A stretch of 64,000 nt of DNA from Shigella phage vB_SboS_Gloob. The notes below the pieces were generated by a model. It was not told the origin of the DNA. It worked only from the letters and a program-made list of their open reading frames with translations, and searched no databases. The translations under genes were made by a program, and so were the position numbers. Each line of letters opens with the position of its first letter. Within the stretch, counting starts at the first letter, position 1. Shown here piece after piece: positions 3,210 through 59,314 of this stretch. The stretch is taken from the sequence record OL615011; one strand, given 5' to 3'.

Positions 3210-3938
3210 TTACTTCAGGGCGCTCTTCAGATTATCAGAACCTATGTTGTTGATAACGCCACCAGCGCACAGGTCTTTAGCCCACTCAGACAGTACATTG
3301 GCGAACGAGAAGTTCAGACACTTGCTGACCATGTCTTGGATGTGGGCTAACTCTGAGGCAATACCATTGGCGATATCCTGACCGATTTGCGCCACCTGAG
3401 CAATAGCATCGTTGATATATCCGGTAACTTCGGCGGCCAGCGCCTGGATCTTTGCTAGGCCAGCGCTTACGCCCTGCGCAACTAACTCAGCCAGTTCGGC
3501 CATCTTGGCAGTAACAGTGCTGAGAGCACCCTCCATAGCCCCGATCCACTGGCGCCCAAGAGTCTGTATGACGCCGAAGGCATTGTTGATCAGATCACAG
3601 TTGGTCGGCTCGCGCTCGATTGACTTCAGGCCAGATTTGTACGACACGGAAGTCCCGATGCGGGAATACGCTTCGTTCACAGTCTGATCACCATAGTTGT
3701 TCAGCGTGGTGAGGCTGGTGTCGGCAGAGGTGAACATCGTGTTCGTTTCATTGAGTTTGGCTGTGGTTAGACCGCCTGCCGTCAGAGCGCCCTGGATTTG
3801 CGTATTTCCGGTGTTTGCCAGTGCAGCTGTAGTCGCCTTGCCGCTGGTGATTAAACCCTGAGACGTGCTGCTGAGGGACGGGAGAGGATTGTTAAATGCG
3901 TTACCCTGCTCAAGGGCGTCATAGATCTGTGCGTTCAT
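3210..3938 (-). CDS. hypothetical late protein, Ala/Gly/Thr-rich (243 aa)
   Basis: ORF track; start taken at MNAQIYD because the upstream in-frame ATG lies inside the promoter palindrome. Confidence 0.5.
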   Translation of the reverse strand: MNAQIYDALEQGNAFNNPLPSLSSTSQGLITSGKATTAALANTGNTQIQGALTAGGLTTAKLNETNTMFTSADTSLTTLNNYGDQTVNEAYSRIGTSVSYKSGLKSIEREPTNCDLINNAFGVIQTLGRQWIGAMEGALSTVTAKMAELAELVAQGVSAGLAKIQALAAEVTGYINDAIAQVAQIGQDIANGIASELAHIQDMVSKCLNFSFANVLSEWAKDLCAGGVINNIGSDNLKSALK

Positions 3939-3961
3939 AGAAAATACCCCCATGGATGATG

Positions 3962-3972
3962 GGGGTATTTAG
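3962..3972 (-). promoter_or_regulatory. late promoter motif CTAAATACCCC inside a palindrome (AAATACCCCCAT / ATGGGGGTATTT)
   Basis: Exact motif 25-30 nt upstream of gene start 3938; inverted repeat spans about 3936-3972. Confidence 0.5.
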
Positions 3973-4185
3973 GGGATCATGGCAGTTTGTAAACGAAGTT
4001 GGACCAGAACTTGCGAGCGAACTTCTTGGCATAGACCTTCCAGTCGGCGTATTCGCCCTCCTTCAGGTCATTGTAGGTCTCGAACCCTACTGCTCCCAAG
4101 AAGTACGCCGTGAAGATATAGCAGAACAGATTGACGACAAACATGATGTATCTCCGCTGTGTGAACTCAAATTATTTATGGTATG

Positions 4186-4608
4186 TTATAAAAGGCGCTT
4201 GGTCTTCGGCTTGCCCATTAGAGTGATGTCCACAGGGAGGCCAGTTTTCTTGCAACGGTTGATCATATCCAGAGTGCCAGTAGACGAGCCGTCCCACATC
4301 GCAATCGGATACACTTCCAGCCTGGTCTGCCTGACGAGTTCCAATGCCTTGTCTAACATGTCCTGATTGCGTTTGTTACCCATCCCTTTCCCATACCTTT
4401 CATAATAGCTCGGAGGGATTGGCATAGGAGTGATATGAACATAATTGATTTCAGCCCAATCACGGCAAATCGTGTCGACACCCGTGGCCTCACCCTCGAT
4501 CAACGTATAGACTTCATGAGGATCGAGAAGTTCGTCCAGCTTGGCGAATACCTTATCCCGCTCGGTGATTGAGCGGGAACCTGTAACGAGTACGATATAC
4601 TTCTTCAT
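4186..4608 (-). CDS. SLOG/DprA-like Rossmann-fold protein (141 aa)
   Basis: Start MKKYIVLVTGSRS; glycine-rich loop after a beta-strand resembles DprA/LOG-like families; weak, by eye only. Confidence 0.35.
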   Translation of the reverse strand: MKKYIVLVTGSRSITERDKVFAKLDELLDPHEVYTLIEGEATGVDTICRDWAEINYVHITPMPIPPSYYERYGKGMGNKRNQDMLDKALELVRQTRLEVYPIAMWDGSSTGTLDMINRCKKTGLPVDITLMGKPKTKRLL

Positions 4609-4613
4609 AGAAC

Positions 4614-4958
4614 TCACAGCGCCCCAAGATTGCCGATGACATACAGGGAGCACAGAGGAGTGCCTGACGAACGGGGTTCGATTGTCATCCCGCTCAGGCG
4701 GATCAGTTCCAGTAAGCCGTCAGTGGTTTGATACGCGCGTGTCGAACCGTTCGGACGGTATAGCTCCAGCTCGGTTCGCCCTTCCTTTAATGCGTTACGA
4801 ATGCGAGTGAACACACTGTGGCCGCCGAACTTCTGCTTCAGAAGGTCCAGCTTGGTGACCAGACGGCGCGATTTGCGCGGCTTACGCTTGTTTGGCTTTT
4901 CTAATTTGACGATGTGGGGGATCTCCACACGGTTGGTCATTTTGGTATCGCATGCCAT
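4614..4958 (-). CDS. hypothetical basic protein (114 aa)
   Basis: ORF track; ATG with GAGGA SD. Confidence 0.45.
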   Translation of the reverse strand: MACDTKMTNRVEIPHIVKLEKPNKRKPRKSRRLVTKLDLLKQKFGGHSVFTRIRNALKEGRTELELYRPNGSTRAYQTTDGLLELIRLSGMTIEPRSSGTPLCSLYVIGNLGAL

Positions 4959-5027
4959 GGTAAAGTCCTCTATTTGTAGGGGATAGGGTATGCGCTTAAC
5001 ATACCCCGTTCAAAGGTTTAGAACAAA

Positions 5028-5336
5028 TCAAGAAAAATTGAACTTGTTGTCAACGAAGGTCAGGCGGGAGCATACTTCTTCAACTGCATCAACCATCATA
5101 AAATCTTTGAATGCTTCATGCAAGGCATTCAGGAAGGAAGCTGGGACTAAACCACAAGCCGGGTTGTCAAACAGAGCTGAAGCAACTACTGCGTTGTAAG
5201 TTGAATCAGGAGTAGCAGACTGGCACAACATCATGGCTTCAGCGTTCTTTACCGCATGGTATTTAAAGGTGTTAACCACAGTGGTTTTGTTGGATTTTGC
5301 CAGTTGAGCTTCGAATTGTTCTTTGGTGATTGTCAT
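5028..5336 (-). CDS. hypothetical protein (103 aa from MTITKEQFE)
   Basis: ORF track; internal ATG chosen because it sits downstream of the promoter-like hairpin. Confidence 0.45.
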   Translation of the reverse strand: MTITKEQFEAQLAKSNKTTVVNTFKYHAVKNAEAMMLCQSATPDSTYNAVVASALFDNPACGLVPASFLNALHEAFKDFMMVDAVEEVCSRLTFVDNKFNFS

Positions 5337-5385
5337 GATATAGTTCCTTCGCTTCAAGTTGGTATTGTGTTGCTTGTCCTTGAAG

Positions 5386-5415
5386 TATACGGGGTTTATT
5401 GAAGAAGTAAACCCC
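5386..5415 (-). promoter_or_regulatory. sigma70-like early promoter overlapping a 10-bp-stem hairpin
   Basis: Minus strand reads GTTTAC-N17-TATACT; hairpin ACGGGGTTTA..TAAACCCCGT encloses the spacer; plus-strand flank is T-rich. Confidence 0.4.
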
Positions 5416-5436
5416 GTTTATTGAATAAATTTAAAA

Positions 5437-7723: not shown

Positions 7724-7760
7724 TTAGTTTGGCACATCATATAGCGAATCCCCATAATGA

Positions 7761-7784
7761 AAAACCCCGCCGAAGCGGGGTTTT
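7761..7784 (-). terminator. rho-independent terminator after capsid gene
   Basis: Minus strand CCCCGC-TTCG-GCGGGG followed by UUUUUC. Confidence 0.7.
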
Positions 7785-7803: not shown

Positions 7804-9135
7804 TTAGAACAGACCTTTGATCAGACCTTTACGGAAGTAAGGGTTGCTGTCCTGAGCGATACCATCGGCAGTCACGTAAACCTGTGGGTCCTGGTTCGCT
7901 GGGATCTGTACGAATGGGTTCGCGCAGATGCCGTAACGAGTTTTGAACGCCATACGTGGGCTGAAGGTGGTTTCACCCTGGGTGCGGTACATTTCCAGCG
8001 GCACATACGGCGCGAAGAAGATACCAGCATCCAGCGCGGTTGCGCCTTTGTACGCCAGGGTGATGTATTCAGCAACCGCATACGGGTCGATGTATACACG
8101 CATACCGTTGGACAGTACACCAGCGAAGGTCTGGCCAGTTGGGTCGATCGCCAGCTTGGTGTTTTCCTGCAGCGCCGGAGCGTAATCCAGCATGCCGGAC
8201 ATTGCCAGAGCGGATGCTACGTTCGGAGAACACAGAACACGGTTGCCTTTACCACGACGGGTGTCAACACCGATGCCGTTCGCTTCAACTTCCAGCATGA
8301 AAGTCATGTACTTCCATTTTTCCAGCGCCCAACGACCGGAGATGTCGGTGGAGATGTCTACAACGCCGTTTGCGCCGAATTTTTTGAAGCGTACTGCACT
8401 GAAGTTCATGGTACGGATGAACTCACGGTTCATTTCCGCCTGAATTTCAGTTACCATCACGTCGGACAGGATGCTGTCAACGTCTTCGCCGTGGATCGCC
8501 ATCATGTCCTGGCGCAGTTCATGGCTGTAGTCAGCGTACAGGCCACGAGACTTCGCAGTCACGGTTGCTTTCTGAACGGTGATACCAACACGCGCCCATG
8601 GGTTGGTGGTGGTGCCCAGCAGTTCAGCGTCGGTGGTTGGCATGCCTTTACCGATGGTGGTCACGCCAGCGCCGGAACCTTCGATCTCGGCCTGAGTAAA
8701 GCCAGATGGATCGCCAGCCTGTACAGTACCGTCACCAGAGTAGCCGGAATCAGCTTCCTGCATGAACAGTTCTTTACGGGACTGTTGGGTGTTGGATGAG
8801 TCGCCGACGCCCTGGCGAGCACGCAGAGCAAAGATCTGACCGTCAGGACCAGACAGCGGCTGTACGCCGAAGAAGTCCATCGCGATGTTGATCGGAGCCA
8901 GACGTTTTGCCATGTCGATCAGGACTGGCTGCCATTTGCCCACAGAGTTGTTCACAGAACCAGGAGCGTCAGATTCGCCCAGGTTTTTGGCGTTCCACTC
9001 AGCCTGGTTTTGCAGCAGGCGGACAGCAACGTTTTCGGCAGAAAGCGGCTGGATACTTTCAGATTCTTTCTGAAGAACTGGCAGCCACTGCTCGCGCATT
9101 TGTTCGGTAACAAGTTTCTTAGCCATGATGGTCAT
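7804..9135 (-). CDS. major capsid protein, T4 gp23-like (443 aa)
   Basis: GVQPLSGPDGQIFALRA and C-terminus YFRKGLIKGLF parallel remembered T4 gp23; position after scaffold and protease genes. Confidence 0.9.
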   Translation of the reverse strand: MTIMAKKLVTEQMREQWLPVLQKESESIQPLSAENVAVRLLQNQAEWNAKNLGESDAPGSVNNSVGKWQPVLIDMAKRLAPINIAMDFFGVQPLSGPDGQIFALRARQGVGDSSNTQQSRKELFMQEADSGYSGDGTVQAGDPSGFTQAEIEGSGAGVTTIGKGMPTTDAELLGTTTNPWARVGITVQKATVTAKSRGLYADYSHELRQDMMAIHGEDVDSILSDVMVTEIQAEMNREFIRTMNFSAVRFKKFGANGVVDISTDISGRWALEKWKYMTFMLEVEANGIGVDTRRGKGNRVLCSPNVASALAMSGMLDYAPALQENTKLAIDPTGQTFAGVLSNGMRVYIDPYAVAEYITLAYKGATALDAGIFFAPYVPLEMYRTQGETTFSPRMAFKTRYGICANPFVQIPANQDPQVYVTADGIAQDSNPYFRKGLIKGLF

Positions 9136-10114: not shown

Positions 10115-10124
10115 CAGTATTTAG
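10115..10124 (-). promoter_or_regulatory. late promoter motif variant CTAAATACTG
   Basis: About 25 nt upstream of scaffold ATG 10090. Confidence 0.45.
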
Positions 10125-15639: not shown

Positions 15640-15648
15640 GTTATTTAG
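15640..15648 (-). promoter_or_regulatory. late promoter motif variant CTAAATAAC
   Basis: About 40 nt upstream of sheath ATG. Confidence 0.4.
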
Positions 15649-47145: not shown

Positions 47146-48444
47146 ATGAACGACAAAACTCAGAAACTTATAGATATCACCAAACAGGCGATAGAAGAAA
47201 ACGCCAGCCCTTTTATCTTTGCTCCATATACCCCGGATGCCCTTATGGGCGACCGCAAAACTATCTTCAATGCTCTCTCGCTTGACCGCAATGTCATCCA
47301 CTGGGAAGACTATCTCTACAAGCACACCCCGTGCGAACTCGTTGCCAACCCCGAAACCAATCAGCAGGTCTGGTTCAAGCGTGAAGATTACTTTGCACCG
47401 CTGTCCAATTACGCAAATGGTCAGCAGGGCATCAATGGCAGTAAGTTGCGCCAGGCCATCTGGCTGATGGTTGAGCACCTGAAGGCCGGAGGTTCCCCTG
47501 ACATCATCCACGGCACTGTCGTTGGTAGTCCGCAATCCCCTATGGCGACGGCAGTCTCTCGGCACTTCGGCGGCAAGACAACCACTGTACTCGGCGCGAC
47601 CAAACCAACCACTTGCATGAACCATGGCATGGTTGAGATGAGCGCCTGGTTCGGCAGTGAGTTCAACTTCGTCGGCTCCGGCTACAACAGCACGATCCAG
47701 CCGCGCTGTAAGAAGCTCATCGAGCAGGTGAATCCAAAGGCGTACTACCTGGAATATGGTATTACCCTGGACCACACAGTGCATTCCCCCGAGCGCATCG
47801 CAGGATTCCATATGCTGGGCGGCGAGCAGGTTGCTAACATCCCGGACCATATCACCGACCTGATCATCCCGGCTGGCTCATGCAACTCATGTACGAGTAT
47901 CCTGACCGGACTGGCGATGCATCCGAAGCCTAATCTGAAGCGTGTGTATCTGATCGGCATCGGTCCGAACCGCCTGGACTTCATTGAGAGCCGCCTGCGC
48001 ATCATCGGCAAACAGGCCAATCTACCGCATATCACAGACTTCACCCGCCGTTATCACGACAACCCAGACTATGTCCACGGCAAGAAGGAGCTTCAGCATG
48101 CCTCTAAGAGCGTTTCGCTGGCTGGCCTCCTAAGTGGTATCAGGCAGAAGGGAGAGCCAGAGGTCGTGCTTCCTCGTTTTGAGGTACACCATTGGGATCT
48201 CCACACCACCAATTGGGTTCGTTACAATGACCTGATGGATTATCAGTGGGGTGATATCGAATTGCACCCGCGTTATGAAGGCAAGGTCATGACCTGGGTC
48301 CAGCAACACAAGCCCGAGTTGCTCAATGAGAACACTCTGTTCTGGATTGTGGGCAGCAAGCCGTACATCGAGCCAATGAAGGCCGCATGCCCTGAGCTGG
48401 CTATCCCAGATGAAGTGAACGTCAACACCTTCACTCCTTCCTGA
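47146..48444 (+). CDS. PLP-dependent fold-type-II enzyme candidate (432 aa)
   Basis: GINGSKLRQAIWLM resembles the GGNKxRKLE lysine loop of the ACC deaminase / D-cysteine desulfhydrase family; by eye. Confidence 0.45.
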   Translation: MNDKTQKLIDITKQAIEENASPFIFAPYTPDALMGDRKTIFNALSLDRNVIHWEDYLYKHTPCELVANPETNQQVWFKREDYFAPLSNYANGQQGINGSKLRQAIWLMVEHLKAGGSPDIIHGTVVGSPQSPMATAVSRHFGGKTTTVLGATKPTTCMNHGMVEMSAWFGSEFNFVGSGYNSTIQPRCKKLIEQVNPKAYYLEYGITLDHTVHSPERIAGFHMLGGEQVANIPDHITDLIIPAGSCNSCTSILTGLAMHPKPNLKRVYLIGIGPNRLDFIESRLRIIGKQANLPHITDFTRRYHDNPDYVHGKKELQHASKSVSLAGLLSGIRQKGEPEVVLPRFEVHHWDLHTTNWVRYNDLMDYQWGDIELHPRYEGKVMTWVQQHKPELLNENTLFWIVGSKPYIEPMKAACPELAIPDEVNVNTFTPS

Positions 48445-48450
48445 TCCCTC

Positions 48451-48461
48451 CTAAATACCCC
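48451..48461 (+). promoter_or_regulatory. late promoter CTAAATACCCC with leader palindrome (ATACCCCA / TGGGGTAT)
   Basis: Exact motif about 22 nt upstream of ATG 48484. Confidence 0.5.
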
Positions 48462-48483: not shown

Positions 48484-48942
48484 ATGAAAACCTTCCTGCA
48501 ATACCTACAAGAATCAGAACATCCTGTTTTCGGCAACCTGTTGTTGTATCATGGGTCTAATTGTGAATTCGATGAGTTCGACTTCAAGCGCTTCGGTCAG
48601 ACAGACTGCGGTACGCTCGGTCCTGGCTTCTATCTGACTGGGTTAGAAGAAGAGGCGCAGCGTTATGCAGACAACGCTGTCCGATATCGACAGGAAGGGG
48701 AACCCCACGTGATGAGTTTCCGTGTTCGCCTCAACAACCCTATTGTGCTGGATTCCAACAATGCCTCAGCCTGGGAAGACCGGATGAGGGAACTTGGCAT
48801 AGAACCAGGAAAGGTTCACGACAATGCAAAAGAGTTGATGGCTCAGGGCTATGACTCCGTCATCATTATTGATCCGGCGGCTCTGCCTATGGTGAGGGAA
48901 GTTGTTGTGTACAAACCAGGCCTGGCAGTGCGGGAAGCCTAA
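48484..48942 (+). CDS. late-expressed hypothetical protein (152 aa)
   Basis: ORF track; contains LLLYHGSN; function unassigned. Confidence 0.5.
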   Translation: MKTFLQYLQESEHPVFGNLLLYHGSNCEFDEFDFKRFGQTDCGTLGPGFYLTGLEEEAQRYADNAVRYRQEGEPHVMSFRVRLNNPIVLDSNNASAWEDRMRELGIEPGKVHDNAKELMAQGYDSVIIIDPAALPMVREVVVYKPGLAVREA

Positions 48943-48949
48943 ATACCCC
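48939..48949 (+). promoter_or_regulatory. late promoter CTAAATACCCC
   Basis: Exact motif about 28 nt upstream of ATG 48978. Confidence 0.5.
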
Positions 48950-52139: not shown

Positions 52140-55139
52140 ATGACCGTTTTCTATACGAACGTTGCCCGTCGGGGCAATGACCTGTTGATTCGAATCGCAG
52201 ATGACATGGGTAATCGCCGTCTGTTGAAAAAGAAATTCGAACCCACTCTCTATTTACCCACGGCTGATTATTCAAATGTTGAAAAGGTCGGCTTGCTCAA
52301 TGAACCCCTGGTGGCCAAGCAGTTCCCTGACATGCGCACTGCTGACAACTACCTTGAAGAGTACAAGGAAGTCCAGGGCGCGGCCATCTATGGACAGACG
52401 GATTATGCATACCAGTTCATCGCCCACAGTTTCCCCGGGAAGATCGAACCGGATTACTCCAACATCCATATCGCCAACCTCGATATCGAAGTGTTCACCG
52501 CCGGGTGGAAAGACGGGGAGATGACCAAGGGTCCATTTCCTCATCCGACTATTGAGCAGCAGACGTTCAAAGGTAGCGAGGCACGCATCCGCCGCTTCCA
52601 TCAGCAGGTACTGGCCAACCATGACTTCATCCGTGAGCACTTTCCCAGTTCCTTTATCAGCAACAACGTGACCGACCAGTTCCCTATCATTGATAGCAAT
52701 GGCAAGATCACCCAGGACATGAATGCAGCGTTCCCTATCACGCTCATCCAGCTTCAGGACATGGCGACCAATAAGTTCATGGTGTGGGGTATGCCGTGCG
52801 CGAAGGATCGTGCGAAGTTCAGATACGATCCAGAAGACGCGGAGATCGGTGGACTTGAGGTGGAGTACAAGGAGTTTGTCACCGAGCAGGATCTGCTGCG
52901 ATCTTTCCTTGACTTCTGGTCACAGCGTCAGTTTGATGGCTGGACAGGCTGGAACATCGAGACGTTTGATAGCCCGTACCTTGTTGAGCGCATGAACCAG
53001 GTTCTGGGCGAAGCCGAAACATCTCGCCTCAGCCCGTGGGGAATCATCAAGAAGCGCACCATCCGCGATAAGAAGGGTGACATCACGACATATCAGTTCG
53101 TGGGCTGCCCTATGCTTGACTACATGCAGATCTACAAGAAGCACACGTACACCACGCGTGAGCGGTACTCTCTTGATTGGATTGCGTATTGTGAGCTGGG
53201 TGAGAAGAAGATGGACTACAGTGAGAGCAAGTCGCTCTTTGACCTGTACTTCAACGACTATGCCAAACACACCCGATATGGTATCAAGGACGTCAAGCTG
53301 GTATGGCGTCTTGAGCAGAAGCTGCGTTTGCTTCAGCTGATGTTCGTCCTTGCGTACCGCACCAAGTCCAACTATGAAGACGGCCTGGGTACAGTGGCTC
53401 CGTGGCTGGCCATGTGCTACTATCGTCTGTATGAGAAGGGGATAGTGCCTAAGATCCAGCGTGTATACGATGGTCCGACCGATTTTGAGGGCGCATACGT
53501 CATGGAGGTGACACCAGGAATCTACTTCTGGGTCTTCTCTGAGGACTTGAACTCCCTCTACCCTCACATCATCCAGCAATACAACCTCGGTCCTGAGACT
53601 ATCGTTGGCGACAAACACCAGCGCCGTGAGATCATTGAGGCTATGTGTGAAGAGCTGGCTGCTCAGATGAATAACATGGCAACGCCGATGCACAAACGTC
53701 GGTTGATGAAAGCCCTTCACGACAAACTGTTGCGTGCGATTGACGAACGCCTGCAGGTTGTTGATGAACTGGTTGCCCTGGGTGAGTTCCACTTTGAGAC
53801 CCTGCGCCGCTACAACGTGTCCTTCACGCCGAACGTTCAGTTCTTCAGCAACGAGAAGATGTCGTTCCTGTCTGAAATCATGCGTGGTATCTACAGCGAC
53901 CGTAAAGTAGAGAAAGCCAAGGGTCTGAAGTATGAGCAGTGGGCTGGCTGGTGTAAAGAGATGGCGAAGGGTGACTTCCATCTTGAATCTGCGATGAAGT
54001 CGCGCTTCTATGATCCAGAGTGGTATGAAGAGCACAAGAACATTGATCTTGATGCACTGACCGAAGTGATGAAGAAGTGGGAAGATCTGGGGGTTGCCCA
54101 AGATACTCTTCAGCAAGGTCTGAAGATCTTGATGAACGCAGGTTATGGTGCGATCTCAAACGTCTGGTTCAAAGAGTACTTCAACCTCAACATCGCCGAA
54201 GCCATCACAACGTCCGGTCAGCTGATCAACAAGTGGAACAAGCGCTACACCGATGACTATCTGAACAAGCTGTGCGGCACGACAGGCCAGGACTTCGTCA
54301 TCGCGGGTGATACTGACTCCAACTACATCTGCATTGAGCGTCTTGTCAAGCAGTTGTGGCCTGATGTTACTGACCATCATGCTATGGTTGATAATATCGA
54401 CCAATGGATCAAGGACAACTACCAGCCGAAGACCAATGAGTGGGCACAGCTTCTGTGTAACACCATGAACGGATTTGAACAGCGCATGGTGTGGGAGCGT
54501 GAAGTAATTGCATCAGCTGCCGTCTGGCGAGCCAAGAAGATGTATGCCATGGCCGTGTACGACAGTGAGGGTATCAAGTACGAGAAGCCGAAGATCAAGT
54601 TCAAAGGTCTGGAAGCCCGTAAGTCCACCACGCCGGAATGGTGTCGTGAGCGTCTTGTTAAGTGCTATGAGAAGATCCTGCTCGGCACCGAAGAGGAAGT
54701 ACAGACGCTCATCTCCCAGTACAAAGAGGAGTACATGAAGCTCTCTGTAGACGATATCGCCAAGGCATCCGGTGTGTCCGACATAGAGAAGTGTGTGGCC
54801 GCCGACGGCTCGTTCATCTCTGGTGCTCACTATGCTGCCAAGGCATGTGTGGGTTACAACCGCATGGTAGAGAAGAACGAAGACCTCGGCCTGCCGATGA
54901 TTGAGTCGGGTGATAAGGTCAACATGGTACTGCTGAAGAATGGCAACCCGTTTGGCCAGAATTACTTCGCATATCCTGAGTTCTTCCCCGAGGAACTGGG
55001 TATGGGTAAATGGGTGGATTACCATACAGCCTTTGAGAAGTCCTTCATCGACCCTATTCAGTCCATCCTTGACGTGGTCGGCTGGTCACACAAGCGTCGT
55101 GTGAACCTTCTTGCCATGATGCAAAAGAAGAAAGGTTGA
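52140..55139 (+). CDS. DNA polymerase, family B, T4 gp43-like (999 aa)
   Basis: Exo I NLDIEVF, motif A DLNSLYPHII, motif C IAGDTDS. Confidence 0.95.
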   Translation: MTVFYTNVARRGNDLLIRIADDMGNRRLLKKKFEPTLYLPTADYSNVEKVGLLNEPLVAKQFPDMRTADNYLEEYKEVQGAAIYGQTDYAYQFIAHSFPGKIEPDYSNIHIANLDIEVFTAGWKDGEMTKGPFPHPTIEQQTFKGSEARIRRFHQQVLANHDFIREHFPSSFISNNVTDQFPIIDSNGKITQDMNAAFPITLIQLQDMATNKFMVWGMPCAKDRAKFRYDPEDAEIGGLEVEYKEFVTEQDLLRSFLDFWSQRQFDGWTGWNIETFDSPYLVERMNQVLGEAETSRLSPWGIIKKRTIRDKKGDITTYQFVGCPMLDYMQIYKKHTYTTRERYSLDWIAYCELGEKKMDYSESKSLFDLYFNDYAKHTRYGIKDVKLVWRLEQKLRLLQLMFVLAYRTKSNYEDGLGTVAPWLAMCYYRLYEKGIVPKIQRVYDGPTDFEGAYVMEVTPGIYFWVFSEDLNSLYPHIIQQYNLGPETIVGDKHQRREIIEAMCEELAAQMNNMATPMHKRRLMKALHDKLLRAIDERLQVVDELVALGEFHFETLRRYNVSFTPNVQFFSNEKMSFLSEIMRGIYSDRKVEKAKGLKYEQWAGWCKEMAKGDFHLESAMKSRFYDPEWYEEHKNIDLDALTEVMKKWEDLGVAQDTLQQGLKILMNAGYGAISNVWFKEYFNLNIAEAITTSGQLINKWNKRYTDDYLNKLCGTTGQDFVIAGDTDSNYICIERLVKQLWPDVTDHHAMVDNIDQWIKDNYQPKTNEWAQLLCNTMNGFEQRMVWEREVIASAAVWRAKKMYAMAVYDSEGIKYEKPKIKFKGLEARKSTTPEWCRERLVKCYEKILLGTEEEVQTLISQYKEEYMKLSVDDIAKASGVSDIEKCVAADGSFISGAHYAAKACVGYNRMVEKNEDLGLPMIESGDKVNMVLLKNGNPFGQNYFAYPEFFPEELGMGKWVDYHTAFEKSFIDPIQSILDVVGWSHKRRVNLLAMMQKKKG

Positions 55140-55201: not shown

Positions 55202-55543
55202 ATGAAACTCAATAAGATTCTTCTGGTGTGTGCTCTGGCTTTCTCTACCACCGCATGCTCTACCCTTGTGGACGTTGCGTCTACTGTAGACCTTGACGCG
55301 CCGACGTTCACCAATGAGCAGGCCGTGTCTAAGATGGAAGATACCATCAAGGCTCATGCCGCTCTTGACAACACCACTCCTGGTCCATTACAGACCGTCT
55401 GCAACTATGACGATTCCATCCAGGAAGACGAAACCTACCACTGCACCACCCACGTGAAGCAGGCTTCCGTCGTTCTGTATGCGGATTGTACCGAAGAACA
55501 GTGCGTTGCTACGGGCTACGACAAAGTTGAGGAAGACAAATGA
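55202..55543 (+). CDS. putative lipoprotein (about 113 aa)
   Basis: MKLNKILLVCALAFSTTACS has a signal peptide and lipobox-like motif. Confidence 0.5.
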   Translation: MKLNKILLVCALAFSTTACSTLVDVASTVDLDAPTFTNEQAVSKMEDTIKAHAALDNTTPGPLQTVCNYDDSIQEDETYHCTTHVKQASVVLYADCTEEQCVATGYDKVEEDK

Positions 55544-56319
55544 ACAACCTGGTCTGTCTCTATGATATGAAATCAAAGGTCGGTGGTCTGTATCGCGTCC
55601 TCGTGGATGTTGACCTGACGCTGGTCGACAGCCTCTCCCCTTGGGTGCAGTGGTTCAACGAAGAGAACATCGCTGCCGCTGCTATTGCTACGGGGGAACA
55701 TAAGTCATATCAGTTCCAGCCGATCACCAAAGAGTGCTATATGGCTCATGCTGGCGACCTGGCTATTCTGATGCGAGAACGTGCACATCCGGCGTGGTTG
55801 ATACGCCGCGTGTACCTCGCTGGGCAATGGATGTATGCTCCTACAGGGCGTGATCCTATGGATTGGTGGCGTCGCCCTGACCTGTACGCCAAGATGAACC
55901 CGCTTCCAGGTGCTTACGAGTTCCTGGTGAATCTGAAGAAGATTCTGCTCGAAGACTTTGACAATGTTGAATTCATCGCAGTGTCCAAGTGTGAGCCGGA
56001 ACACGAGCGCAGCAAGCGCCAGTTTGTCTATGACAAGTTCCCTGGTATCTTCAACGGATTTGTCAGTACTGACGAAAAGCATCTGCTGGCAGGCGATGTC
56101 CTGATTGATGACAATCCGAAGTATGTTGAGCCGTGCGGCCTGAACAACATCTTCGTCATCTTTGTTCCTCAGGGCAATTATGAAAAACTGGATCTTTCGA
56201 ATTCGGAAGATATGCTTTATATTAAACCAGTAGAAGGCCAGAACCACTTCGACTTCCTGAATCACAATATTGTTGAAGTGGTGAACCGCTTGATTGGTCA
56301 TTATCAATACGTCCGATAG
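55540..56319 (+). CDS. HAD-superfamily hydrolase, 5'(3')-deoxyribonucleotidase-like (259 aa)
   Basis: Motif I VLVDVDLTLVD (DxDxT). Confidence 0.55.
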   Translation: MNNLVCLYDMKSKVGGLYRVLVDVDLTLVDSLSPWVQWFNEENIAAAAIATGEHKSYQFQPITKECYMAHAGDLAILMRERAHPAWLIRRVYLAGQWMYAPTGRDPMDWWRRPDLYAKMNPLPGAYEFLVNLKKILLEDFDNVEFIAVSKCEPEHERSKRQFVYDKFPGIFNGFVSTDEKHLLAGDVLIDDNPKYVEPCGLNNIFVIFVPQGNYEKLDLSNSEDMLYIKPVEGQNHFDFLNHNIVEVVNRLIGHYQYVR

Positions 56320-56328
56320 GAGGACATC

Positions 56329-56634
56329 GTGCAAGAACAATCCAAGTTTGGGGAAACCCCAGACAAGCGTTCCGGTGATAGCGATATGGATGGCGTGATT
56401 ATCCATGTCAACAACTTTATTCGCCAGCAGGAGACTCCGACTCCTATCGGCGCAGCCAAGGCTCTTCATGACGTACTGGTGGAGATCGGTCAGCGCTCTG
56501 AAGCGGATGAAATCTTCTATAACTTCGACGACCAGTATAAAGTGAAGTTTGAAGAGAATGGCCGCCCACAGGTTGCTGTATTCTGGGCACCATGGATGGG
56601 CGGCGTGAGCTGGCGTATTGAGGATATTGCATAA
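56329..56634 (+). CDS. hypothetical protein (101 aa, GTG start)
   Basis: AGGAGG SD 7 nt upstream of GTG. Confidence 0.4.
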   Translation: MQEQSKFGETPDKRSGDSDMDGVIIHVNNFIRQQETPTPIGAAKALHDVLVEIGQRSEADEIFYNFDDQYKVKFEENGRPQVAVFWAPWMGGVSWRIEDIA

Positions 56635-57551
56635 TGGCTAAAATAATTGTAGTGAAAGGAACCAGTGCTACGGGCAAGGGTACGAGAGTGGTTCAGTTCA
56701 TCGAATGGCTCCGTACGAAGCTGGAGCCTACCGAACTAACCTACACTATCGGCGACAAGACGCGTCCGTTTGGGCTGAAGTTTGAAGAGATGAAGTTAAT
56801 CTTCGTCGGCCAGTACACTGTGTCCAACAAATCTGGCCTGGCCTCCTGGACTTCCATGGATGCTATCCACGCGGCCACAGGCTCCGGCGATATCGCTCGT
56901 GACCTGGTCAAAGGCTGGCTGGCCCAGGGTTACACCCTGGTGTGTGAGGGCGAACCTCTGATGCTGTCGGATAAATGGCGTCCTGAATGGATGTTCAAGA
57001 ACTATCCGATTGAATCACTGTCACTGCTGTACTTTGCATACCCTGACCGCTATCAGTACGATGCCCGCATCCGTGGTCGCTCTGGTAAAGAAGCAGGGGA
57101 CTCCGGCTGGTCGCGCAACGAATCTTACTCCAAGGAGTTTGAGAAGTCGAAGGCCGAAATGCTGGCGCTGGGCTTTACTGTGGCTGTTGATGATTTCAGC
57201 GGACAGGATATCCTGTATAAAGCACCAGAGGCCAACACCCAGGAGTTCACGACCAAACAGCAGTCCGAGTTGGCGGTGCTCCCATACGACGCCCCGCTGT
57301 GGGTTGTGGGTATTGCGATTTGTCATCAGATACGCTCTGAACTGCGCGATGTTGACATGCATACCAAAGACTTCTACGCCTACTGCGAAACCAATCCGAT
57401 GACCCGTGAGGTCGGTGGCCGGGATCCTTTGGCGCACAGAGTCCCTGAGAAGCCGCAGAAGGCATCCAAAACTAAAACCAAGGCGAGCGCCCAGCCAGAA
57501 GCACCGAAGGCAGCGTCGCGCTCTCTCCTTGACCTGATGAAGAAGGGGTGA
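56634..57551 (+). CDS. P-loop kinase, candidate 5-hydroxymethyluracil DNA kinase (305 aa)
   Basis: Walker A VVKGTSATGKGT; association with polymerase and PLP-enzyme genes. Confidence 0.45.
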   Translation: MAKIIVVKGTSATGKGTRVVQFIEWLRTKLEPTELTYTIGDKTRPFGLKFEEMKLIFVGQYTVSNKSGLASWTSMDAIHAATGSGDIARDLVKGWLAQGYTLVCEGEPLMLSDKWRPEWMFKNYPIESLSLLYFAYPDRYQYDARIRGRSGKEAGDSGWSRNESYSKEFEKSKAEMLALGFTVAVDDFSGQDILYKAPEANTQEFTTKQQSELAVLPYDAPLWVVGIAICHQIRSELRDVDMHTKDFYAYCETNPMTREVGGRDPLAHRVPEKPQKASKTKTKASAQPEAPKAASRSLLDLMKKG

Positions 57552-57751: not shown

Positions 57752-58104
57752 AAATTCAAATCCCTCGCGATGCTGTGGCTGTCGCAATTGACTACACCGG
57801 AAACGCCAAGCACATTACTGCTGTGCGCCTGATTCCTGAAAAGAACTGCGTGATCCCTCAGTTCCAGCTGAATGCCAACCCGTCGTCTAAAGACTTCGGT
57901 CAGTGGCTGCAAGCGGCTCCGTTCCGTACCCAGACGAATGCCCAGATGTTCATCTCGGGTAAGACTCACACTGCAGCCCGTCTGTGGTTCGTGACCGCTG
58001 ACCGTCGCTTTATCGATATGTGGGAACGCCCGATGGGGTTCGTGAAACCAGAAGACATTCAGCTGGCTCCTGAAGAGGAAGCGAAAGATGACGCATCTAT
58101 CTAA
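57748..58104 (+). CDS. hypothetical protein (118 aa)
   Basis: AAGGAA SD; ATG 57748 inside longer track ORF. Confidence 0.45.
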   Translation: MKIQIPRDAVAVAIDYTGNAKHITAVRLIPEKNCVIPQFQLNANPSSKDFGQWLQAAPFRTQTNAQMFISGKTHTAARLWFVTADRRFIDMWERPMGFVKPEDIQLAPEEEAKDDASI

Positions 58105-59314
58105 AATGCCGACGGGATATACACCCCCGGCTGAATGGAAGTACCCGATTGACCTGGCTGTTGACTATCGCAAGCCGGAGAATCGCATGTACCTGCTCAA
58201 GGCTTGGGTGGAGGCGCTGTCCTACACCGAAGAGCACAACCAGCAGATGCGTCTGATGGATTATGCGATCGAAGTCACAGAAGGCATCACGCAGATTGAG
58301 AAGATCGAGCGCAAAATCTGGATGTCGTTCCTTTGGGGCTGCTGTTACAACGCCATCGGACCGTGGACAATCTACAGTGAGTTCCCTGTACCTCCTCAGT
58401 CCAAAGAAGAGATGCAGCGCTTCTCTGATTGGTACAACCTGAACTTTGAACGCATGCGCTTCGATACCGATTGCCGTTACCGCAAGTCCAAGATGATCCC
58501 GTGTGTTCAGTCCTACATTGATTGGCTGGCTGGGCGCTCCCAGATGGATGCTTTCCGCCCGATGTTAGAATTGGATATTCCTGTACACCAATTCACGAAT
58601 TTGTGGGATACGGCGATGTCCTGGAAATACTTCGGCCGCCTGAGCGCCTGGAACTTCCTGGAAGCCCTGAACATGGTGTTTGGCAACATGTGGGAGATTG
58701 ACGTCCCTGGCTTCATGCTGCGTGACCGTGATGGTAGTGAATCCAACCGCAACGGTGCGGCGTTCTTGTCCAACCGTGACGACTGGGTGACTAAGCACGG
58801 GAAGAAAAAGATCAACGGCTGTCCTATCACGGATGAAGAGTGTGACATCCTTGAGGCCGACCTTGAGCAGGCGTTCCAGGATTGTGTGGCCGAGTTCGGG
58901 CATCTGACGTTCATCAATCGCCTGAACTTTGAGACCTCCGGTGCATGCTGGCTGAAGAAGTTCTTCCGTGAAAAGAACACCCGTTACATTGGTTGGGATG
59001 CCGAGCGTACCTGGGATGAGATCGACTACATGGAACGCATCTGGCCGGAGTACTCCTGCGCAGCGCTCTGGGAAGCCCGTTCACTCTGGCTACCAGATAC
59101 CCTGTTGTGCGAAAAGGCTCCTCCAGGGCACGTTCCAGGCGTCCAGAAGTGGAAGATGCCTGTGTTCTTTGAGACTGGCGTTCCTCTACATATCTGGCAT
59201 CTGCAAAAGGGTACGCGCTGGGAGCCTGGCCAGGTGTATCGAGAATTGGGTAAACCGAAGATTGATAAACCGAAGTCCAACAGCGTCAACCTCATGGCAC
59301 TCTTGAAACGCTGA
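58088..59314 (+). CDS. hypothetical enzyme-sized protein (408 aa), candidate DNA base-modification transferase
   Basis: Size and neighbourhood only; no motif recognised. Confidence 0.3.
   Translation: MTHLSKMPTGYTPPAEWKYPIDLAVDYRKPENRMYLLKAWVEALSYTEEHNQQMRLMDYAIEVTEGITQIEKIERKIWMSFLWGCCYNAIGPWTIYSEFPVPPQSKEEMQRFSDWYNLNFERMRFDTDCRYRKSKMIPCVQSYIDWLAGRSQMDAFRPMLELDIPVHQFTNLWDTAMSWKYFGRLSAWNFLEALNMVFGNMWEIDVPGFMLRDRDGSESNRNGAAFLSNRDDWVTKHGKKKINGCPITDEECDILEADLEQAFQDCVAEFGHLTFINRLNFETSGACWLKKFFREKNTRYIGWDAERTWDEIDYMERIWPEYSCAALWEARSLWLPDTLLCEKAPPGHVPGVQKWKMPVFFETGVPLHIWHLQKGTRWEPGQVYRELGKPKIDKPKSNSVNLMALLKR

Follow-up and report, generated by a model that had tools for sequence, protein, structure and literature searches.

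A stand-alone SLOG domain protein of the YspA clade

We analyzed a stretch of 64,000 nucleotides from Shigella phage vB_SboS_Gloob (sequence record OL615011; this whole stretch is hereafter the window), and in particular the gene at positions 4186-4608 on its minus strand, whose product had been read by eye, in a first-pass annotation, as a DprA-like Rossmann protein of the SLOG type that could act as a counter-defense enzyme. The interval was confirmed as a real gene with exact coordinates: it runs from an ATG at 4608-4606 to a TAA at 4188-4186 and encodes a product of 140 amino acids beginning MKKYIVLVTGSRS, here called the SLOG protein. In the program-made list of open reading frames (ORFs), it is prolonged to a GTG at 4653 (155 amino acids), an extension that runs into the 3' end of the upstream gene at 4614-4958. 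Since strand 1 of the predicted fold begins at residue 4 and the ATG is also the start in every relative down to 44% identity, the ATG at 4608 is the likely start. In the 34 closest relatives (37-100% identity), the motif residues were invariant. The gene and its conserved elements are as follows:

4186-4608, minus strand: coding sequence, with its stop codon, of the 140-residue stand-alone SLOG domain protein of the YspA clade
4573-4581, minus strand: codons of G10-S11-R12, within the loop that follows strand 1, corresponding to DprA motif 1 (G-S/T/A-R)
4474-4494, minus strand: codons of G39-E-A-T-G-V-D45, the GxAxGxD at the start of helix 2, corresponding to the GxD/E motif of the YpsA clade
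4366-4383, minus strand: codons of M76-G77-N-K-R80-N81, in the long helix 3 (family consensus A-G-x-x-R-N); R-N corresponds to the end of DprA motif 2
4273-4296, minus strand: codons of W105-D-G-S-S-T-G111-T112, in the loop following strand 4, equivalent to the LOG motif PGGxGT
4189-4221, minus strand: codons of L-M-G-K-P-K-T-K-R-L-L, the Ackermannviridae-specific C-terminal peptide, basic and predicted to be disordered

The protein is a stand-alone, single-domain member of the YspA clade (DUF2493, Pfam YAcAr) of the SLOG superfamily. Its residues 5-58 matched positions 2-55 of the 66 model positions of Pfam PF10686 (YAcAr, "YspA, cpYpsA-related SLOG family") with an E value of 3.8e-11 and a score of 43.1 bits (gathering score, 28.2), a resemblance much stronger than chance would give, and the same domain was precomputed in all of its close relatives. 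PHROG 289 matched at E 6.4e-39, no match was obtained with PADLOC or NCBIfam, and the sole match in a single-sequence search of solved structures was a metallothionein (E 2.1). With regard to hidden Markov model score, size, stand-alone architecture and invariant residues, the protein resembles the YspA/DUF2493 family at large. The Ackermannviridae clade differs from the rest in an acidic core, most members being basic, in two residues inserted into the last loop (WDGSSTGT versus FPGGxGT) and in an invariant basic C-terminal peptide, found in Ackermannviridae members only.

This family membership was already known, as the family is catalogued and an identical protein is already named in databases: that of Salmonella phage SKML-39 (Ackermannviridae) is 100% identical, and its UniRef name is "YspA cpYpsA-related SLOG domain-containing protein". 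The DNA of the region is 94-95% identical to that of Salmonella phages SW16-7 and SKML-39 and of Shigella phage Ag3, all of them Ackermannviridae with genomes of ~155-160 kb, and the SLOG gene is conserved across this viral family. By tblastn, relatives of the protein were found in 555 phage records, and an exhaustive profile search yielded 24,340 YspA clusters at 50% identity with E<=0.001, 5,968 of them with E<=1e-10, most being stand-alone proteins of 113-145 residues (113-147 amino acids for the matched family size). Family members listed in BFVD come from phages of many hosts, one archaeal virus and giant viruses, and the family also includes proteins of the gp61 type of mycobacteriophage D29. 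According to the survey of Iyer, Burroughs and Aravind (2022), viral SLOG domains, most of them in the YpsA-like clade, are present in 7% of small, 19% of medium and 31% of jumbo phages, and were proposed to sense or degrade immune signals of the cyclic ADP-ribose (cADPR) type, with Macro and NADAR fusions being cited (PMC9503650).

Predicted fold and invariant residues

Conservation was counted in an alignment of 82 diverse relatives. The AlphaFold model built from them (predicted local distance difference test, pLDDT, of 94.9; predicted template modeling score of 0.88) showed a regular alternation of strands and helices, with the last ten residues alone being uncertain, and corresponds to a small, Rossmann-like, three-layer alpha/beta fold such as that of solved SLOG domains. 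G10, R12, G39, G43, D45, R80 and G111 were invariant in all 82 relatives; A41 (81/82), T112 (81/82), N81 (80/82), G77 (77/82) and also M84 were nearly so. Position 76, a Met in the Gloob protein, was Ala in 80 of the 82. In the secondary structure of the model, the invariant residues fall within loops that follow strands 1, 2 and 4 and along one side of the long helix 66-95. Such positions form the usual ligand crevice of Rossmann-like domains. They line a crevice along the sheet's C-terminal edge, and an intact ligand crevice can be taken as established.

Both the conserved polar/Gly loop after strand 1 (T-G-S-R) and a GxD/E motif (G43-V-D45) are present in the protein, and the GxE residues of YpsA that match its GxAxGxD are needed for YpsA function (PMC6459960). 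The last loop reads WDGSSTGT in the SLOG protein, and FPGGxGT in 26 of the 82 relatives. Beyond D45, no acidic residue is invariant: the position of the LOG Glu is occupied by M115, and the preceding D114 varies between D, H and N. A regular-expression search for the Walker A motif GxxxxGK[ST] gave no match in the protein.

Comparison with DprA, ShosA and other SLOG families

Among all solved chains, the profile of the 82 relatives retrieved DprA alone (E 0.0035-0.019), VTGSR being aligned with VVGSR of SpDprA and IIGTR of HpDprA, and GEAxGVD with GLAKGID/GGALGVD. Foldseek also ranked DprA and ShosA first for the model. Several distant relatives co-matched the DprA family PF02481, below or near its threshold; in the Pfam search, the SLOG protein itself did not match PF02481 at E<=1. 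The SLOG/DprA-like call of the first-pass annotation was therefore upheld by a Pfam YspA/SLOG match above the curated threshold and by a profile match to DprA structures. That annotation would have counted the lack of any SLOG or DprA profile match against itself, and the opposite was found, with PF10686 and DprA both matched; the structure prediction it had suggested, carried out with AlphaFold, likewise led to DprA and ShosA as best Foldseek matches.

The Rossmann-like SLOG core is common to the protein, to DprA/Smf (PF02481; PDB 3UQZ, 4LJK) and to ShosA (8ZVA). In DprA, motif 1 is G-S/T/A-R, in which Arg52 of HpDprA is the switch of the pocket for single-stranded DNA (ssDNA), and motif 2 is F/L/Y-x-x-R-N/D, in which Phe140, Arg143 and Asn144 hold the base (PMC3950713). 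The SLOG protein keeps motif 1 as G10-S11-R12, as well as GxAxGxD and the R-N pair. At motif 2, where it reads G77-N-K-R80-N81, R-N is kept but 77 of the 82 relatives have Gly at the aromatic/hydrophobic position, and the SAM and winged-helix extensions of DprA are missing.

In the defense system ShosTA, a phosphoribosyltransferase (PRTase) toxin is paired with a DprA-like antitoxin (PMC12961424). As for a ShosTA-like pair, no PRTase was found among the neighbors of the SLOG gene or the scanned ORFs of the window. In Mycobacterium phage Smeadley, gp75-gp74 (3248-4363 of L003, in our numbering of loci) place a phosphoribosyltransferase directly upstream of a YspA/SLOG gene, within a replication module, and represent the same domain pair as ShosTA.

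Regarding other SLOG families, neither YpsA (DUF1273; 2NX2) nor the SLOG domain of Thoeris ThsA (7UXS, bound to 3'cADPR) matched the protein at the sequence level. It also differs from sensors of the ThsA type, which are fused to an effector and adjoined by a TIR gene, in having no fused SIR2 or other effector and no such arrangement. In the comparison of folds, YpsA and ThsA scored as well as DprA, so that the fold is unable to decide against a reading in which the pocket takes up ADP-ribose signals.

With respect to LOG (PF03641), the counterpart of PGGxGTxxE in the protein is G107-S-S-T-G-T-L-D114-M115, in which the catalytic Glu is missing, and Pfam gave no LOG match. It thus appears quite improbable that the protein is a LOG-like nucleotide N-glycosidase or nucleotide-pool enzyme acting on mononucleotides, for instance by clearing unwanted deoxynucleoside monophosphates in a thymidine-hypermodifying phage. 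Such an activity would suit the FPGGxGT loop of 26 of the 82 relatives, which is near PGGxGTxxE, the invariant Arg80, which by our reading of the motifs corresponds to the LOG Arg, and the presence in the window of a 5-hydroxymethyldeoxyuridine (5-hmdU) DNA kinase, an amino acid:DNA transferase and a 5'-nucleotidase; thymidylate synthases, dCMP deaminase and dGTP diphosphohydrolase are among the neighbors elsewhere. However, the gene is ~50 kb away from the hypermodification genes in the window, and the family occurs in giant viruses and in very many phages without thymidine hypermodification, including mycobacteriophages.

Many GenBank and RefSeq records describe the protein as GTP-binding ("GTP-binding domain"). 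The sole basis for this is the label of PHROG 289, which was copied into the records. Because the protein has no Walker A motif or P-loop, the label is unsupported; moreover, no GTPase family matched in Pfam or NCBIfam, and the fold is that of SLOG and not of P-loop proteins, with signal recognition particle-type GTPases appearing as weak Foldseek matches (E ~0.01). We regard GTP binding as extremely unlikely.

Acidic core and basic C-terminal tail

The C-terminal tail LMGKPKTKRLL is near-invariant in Ackermannviridae, at overall identities of 44-100%, and absent outside this clade, its invariant and clade-specific basic part being GKPKTKRLL. In three phages, the codons of the tail differ synonymously while the peptide is unchanged, which indicates selection on the protein. 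The tail is predicted to be disordered (pLDDT of 63 over the last 10 residues) and carries a charge of about +3.4. The core has an isoelectric point (pI) of 5.7 and a net charge of -2.3, as opposed to a median pI of ~9.3 for non-Ackermannviridae members, most of which are basic. We did not find this combination of an acidic core and an invariant basic tail described before. As a guess, the tail might tether the protein either to DNA or to an acidic partner. No other ORF with a GKPKTKRLL-like ending, which could have marked a shared docking motif, was found in the window or in ~100 kb of one relative.

Genomic context and expression signals in the window

The SLOG gene is flanked by the following features:

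4614-4958, minus strand: upstream gene for a protein of 114 residues (PHROG 4663), with its stop 5 nucleotides before the SLOG ATG
3210-4144, minus strand: conserved downstream genes for a hydrophobic protein of 55 residues (3977-4144) and a DUF7217 virion protein (3210-3953)
7760-7784, minus strand: terminator-like hairpin AAAACCCCGC-TTCG-GCGGGGTTTTT, ~20 nucleotides after the major capsid gene, from direct reading of the sequence

On the minus strand, the sheath, tube, portal and prohead genes and the gene of the major capsid protein (7804-9135) are followed by about nine small uncharacterized genes and then by the SLOG gene. After it, on the same strand, come the genes for the 55-residue protein, the DUF7217 protein (Pfam E 1.7e-98), a tail completion protein and, 2-5 kb downstream of the SLOG gene, UvsY, a PD-(D/E)XK nuclease and a helicase. 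PHROG 4845 was assigned among the downstream genes at 3210-4144, and the 114-residue upstream protein had no Pfam match. Erwinia phage Bue1, with a SLOG protein of 45% identity, has the same order of SLOG, DUF7217, UvsY, nuclease and helicase genes. The 114-residue upstream gene was rejected as a functional partner, as it is replaced in Bue1 by a different small ORF. In that phage, the stop of this unannotated ORF (4846-5004 of L006; MSSEEIELLLKKFRDT...) overlaps the SLOG start (ATGA), so that translational coupling to an upstream gene recurs, though the upstream gene itself changes.

The heptamer CTAAATA was present at 14 sites in the window versus 3.4 expected, a number not reached in any of 100 shuffles. 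Most copies are located directly upstream of structural genes and in gene orientation (e.g., 3966-3972, 10118-10124, 15642-15648, 48451-48457 and 48939-48945), and the motif looks like the late promoter of this phage family. The copy at 3966-3972 precedes the DUF7217 gene, and a version with one mismatch, ccATAAATAattt at 4169-4181, precedes the gene for the 55-residue protein. The T4-type late promoter TATAAATA was not enriched (2 versus 0.67 expected), and scans for sigma-70 promoters and terminators remained at background level. In the block of small genes, which is opened by the hairpin at 7760-7784 and extends from 7723 down to 4186, ending with the SLOG gene, no exact CTAAATA was found, weak sigma-70-like matches being the only ones there. 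Two further hairpins were observed on the minus strand within the block, GGGTATG-ttaagcg-CATACCC at 4986-5006, upstream of the 114-residue protein gene and without a T-run, and AAACGGGGTTTA...TAAACCCCGT at 5389-5419, upstream of the gene at 5028-5357 and overlapping a weak sigma-70-like match; these might act as terminators, as sites of RNA processing or as regulatory structures.

The virion proteome of Kuttervirus Sajous1 contained gp166 (putative structural) and gp168 (tail completion), but nothing at gp163-165 (PMC10892097). Reading the numbering by synteny, gp164 would be the SLOG ortholog, and the DUF7217 counterpart would be among the proteins detected in virions. Together with the positions of the late motif and the hairpin, this proteome suggests that the SLOG protein is neither late nor part of the virion.

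The location of the gene between the major capsid and DUF7217 genes would be in line with a virion-associated or morphogenetic protein, and so would the joining of SLOG and DUF7217 in PHROG 289, a composite of 500 positions in which the SLOG protein aligned with 20-146 and DUF7217 with 258-500, and in a "fusion" of 475 residues from Salmonella phage 38 that was the best BFVD match. In the record of that phage (KR296692; 29289-30716 of L181), however, the frame that encodes SLOG residues 1-121 is not the one that encodes residues 121-140, and the annotated ORF misses the stop and continues across the two genes that follow. In this error-rich record, numerous other genes are split as well (capsid, portal, terminase, sheath, gp46 and ribonucleotide reductase), and a natural SLOG-DUF7217 fusion is ruled out by the frameshift near residue 121. 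The fusion is an artifact with no functional link, and the frameshifted record is apparently the source of the composite PHROG 289. Considering this artifact, the lack of an exact CTAAATA before the SLOG gene, the terminator-like hairpin after the capsid gene and the Sajous1 virions, with nothing at gp163-165 as numbered by synteny, a role in the virion is very unlikely.

Fusions and neighbors in other genomes

YspA domains have been reported fused to the SF1B helicase HelB of ICP1 (10.1101/671271) and to DciA (10.1101/2022.01.24.477630), and viral SLOG domains to HNH, exonuclease and helicase domains (PMC9503650). In 3 of 10 long relatives, we found YAcAr in polyproteins with NADAR-DarT1 and DUF4326. 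DarT-type toxins modify ssDNA. The fusions therefore point both ways, to DNA enzymes (HelB, DciA) and to ADP-ribose processing (NADAR-DarT1, DUF4326).

In eight GenBank phages, the gene lies beside, or overlaps, genes for DNA polymerase, sliding clamp, Dda, other helicases, primase or ParB, with the phosphoribosyltransferase in the case of Smeadley. Genes near it in five metagenomic contigs encode, among others, RusA, dCMP deaminase, RNA ligase, Thg1 and, in one contig, a Mre11/Rad50-like pair. For a broader survey, 160 IMG/VR loci, gathered with two sub-alignments of the 82 relatives, were reduced to 98 clusters at 70% identity, and their 123 immediate neighbors of at least 110 amino acids were compared with Pfam. 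Among the 25 families listed of 56, DNA_pol_A occurred three times, and Thy1, dGTP diphosphohydrolase, gyrase B/Toprim, Metallophos and 5'-3' exonuclease twice each; Pol III alpha, topoisomerase IV, SSB, ERF, DnaB, AAA_24 and a few structural proteins were found as singles. Macro, NADAR, Nudix, TIR and SIR2 were not among these 25 families. In the window and in ~100 kb of Yersinia phage CAU_YEP3, no NAD-salvage, Macro, NADAR, Nudix or PRTase gene was found, the only ADP-ribose-related gene obtained in the search being that of an ART-PolyVal protein, 44 kb away from the SLOG gene.

These results bear on the counter-defense role put forward in the first-pass annotation, which coincides with what has been predicted in print for viral SLOG domains (PMC9503650). 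In this role, the SLOG pocket would either act as a sponge that binds, or cleave at their N-glycosidic bond, free immune signals derived from ADP-ribose, such as the cADPR isomers made by Thoeris TIR proteins, and would thereby blunt abortive infection. The fusions of YAcAr to NADAR-DarT1 and DUF4326 in 3 of 10 long relatives, the location of the gene among small uncharacterized genes without the late motif and the ADP-ribosyltransferase-like protein encoded at 48484-48942 of the same phage all fit this role. On the other hand, the protein lacks the LOG-type Glu, its D114 varies among relatives, and no NAD or ADP-ribose gene adjoins the SLOG gene or appears among the 25 listed neighbor families of the 98 viral loci. 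PADLOC and NCBIfam were also without a match, no YspA protein was found in a literature search as an anti-Thoeris or anti-CBASS factor, and in sequence DprA is a closer relative of the family than ThsA, YpsA or LOG. On balance, we consider this role somewhat less likely than the one proposed below, to which it is the main rival.

Proposed function of the SLOG protein

The explanation that we tentatively prefer, with a probability of roughly 0.4, is that the SLOG protein is a non-catalytic accessory of the replication, recombination and repair machinery that grips a nucleotide or ssDNA. In this mechanism, the crevice would grip one nucleotide unit in a DprA-like manner, with the phosphate being held by Arg12 and the base or ribose by Arg80/Asn81. 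The ligand would most likely be a nucleotide within ssDNA, possibly damaged or modified, and the conserved tail GKPKTKRLL would supply a second contact, either with the DNA backbone or with an acidic partner. The protein would thus serve the phage replication, recombination and repair machinery as an accessory, and is probably made before the structural proteins, since its gene belongs to a block without the late-promoter motif.

This proposal is favored because all the invariant residues have counterparts in DprA with no extra catalytic residue conserved, and because DprA is the sole solved relative detectable by sequence. It is further favored because most of the physical fusions involve DNA enzymes, and because the NADAR-DarT1 fusions, too, concern the modification of ssDNA. 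The replication genes beside family members in other phages, the basic pI of most members outside Ackermannviridae and the synteny with UvsY, nuclease and helicase genes in Bue1 also speak for it. As regards the choice between an enzyme and a binder, an enzyme appears less likely, given that the LOG Glu is absent, that D114 varies, that the invariant residues are matched in the non-catalytic DprA and that no NAD or ADP-ribose gene adjoins the SLOG gene in Gloob.

Several observations weigh against this proposal. The conserved Gly77 stands where DprA motif 2 has its aromatic platform, the SLOG domain has ~125 residues versus ~205 in DprA and is without the parts that DprA uses to dimerize and to bind RecA, and its core is acidic, which is unusual for a DNA binder. 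No single partner recurred among the 25 neighbor families listed of 56, and the replication-module neighborhood is weak evidence, since most non-structural phage genes with Pfam matches are replication genes anyway. The non-late timing of expression is read from motifs only, and our search of the literature on DUF2493, YspA and PF10686 found no experimental study of any YspA/DUF2493 protein.

A further version, which we hold to be improbable, would make the protein a derived anti-defense factor that recognizes ADP-ribose on phage DNA, or ADP-ribose that signals about it, with the tail tethering it to the replisome or to DNA. The YspA protein would either dock on ssDNA that has been ADP-ribosylated by DarT-type toxins or capture a cADPR isomer made by a TIR protein. 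If true, this would unite the DprA-like pocket, the NADAR-DarT1/DUF4326 fusions and the replication-module contexts, and would provide the first function for the very large DUF2493 family.

As it stands, the assignment matters little, with an identical protein deposited, a Pfam entry that is years old and the idea of counter-immunity by viral SLOG domains published in 2022. If a first ligand were found for a YspA/DUF2493 protein, a phage gene that is common would be accounted for, and an accessory of replication or counter-defense with a wide distribution could come to light. A practical by-product is that the "GTP-binding domain" annotation was traced to the composite PHROG 289 profile.

Other genes of the window

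Genes for thymidine hypermodification and nucleotide metabolism were identified on the plus strand at 55540-56319, 56634-57551, 58088-59314 and 47146-48444. This set comprises a 5'-nucleotidase-like protein (NT5C), 5-hmdU DNA kinase 2 (HMUD2, E 3.4e-158), ADDT, which is the amino acid:DNA transferase, and a weak match to a pyridoxal phosphate-dependent enzyme. The window also encodes a family B DNA polymerase, which is presumably the 999-residue ORF at 52140-55139. Lastly, the 152-residue protein encoded at 48484-48942 on the plus strand matched Pfam ART-PolyVal with 46.6 bits, compared with a gathering score of 31.2, and DUF3990 more weakly. A CTAAATA motif lies directly upstream of this gene, at 48451-48457, and its product may be a late, possibly virion-delivered ADP-ribosyltransferase like Alt of phage T4.

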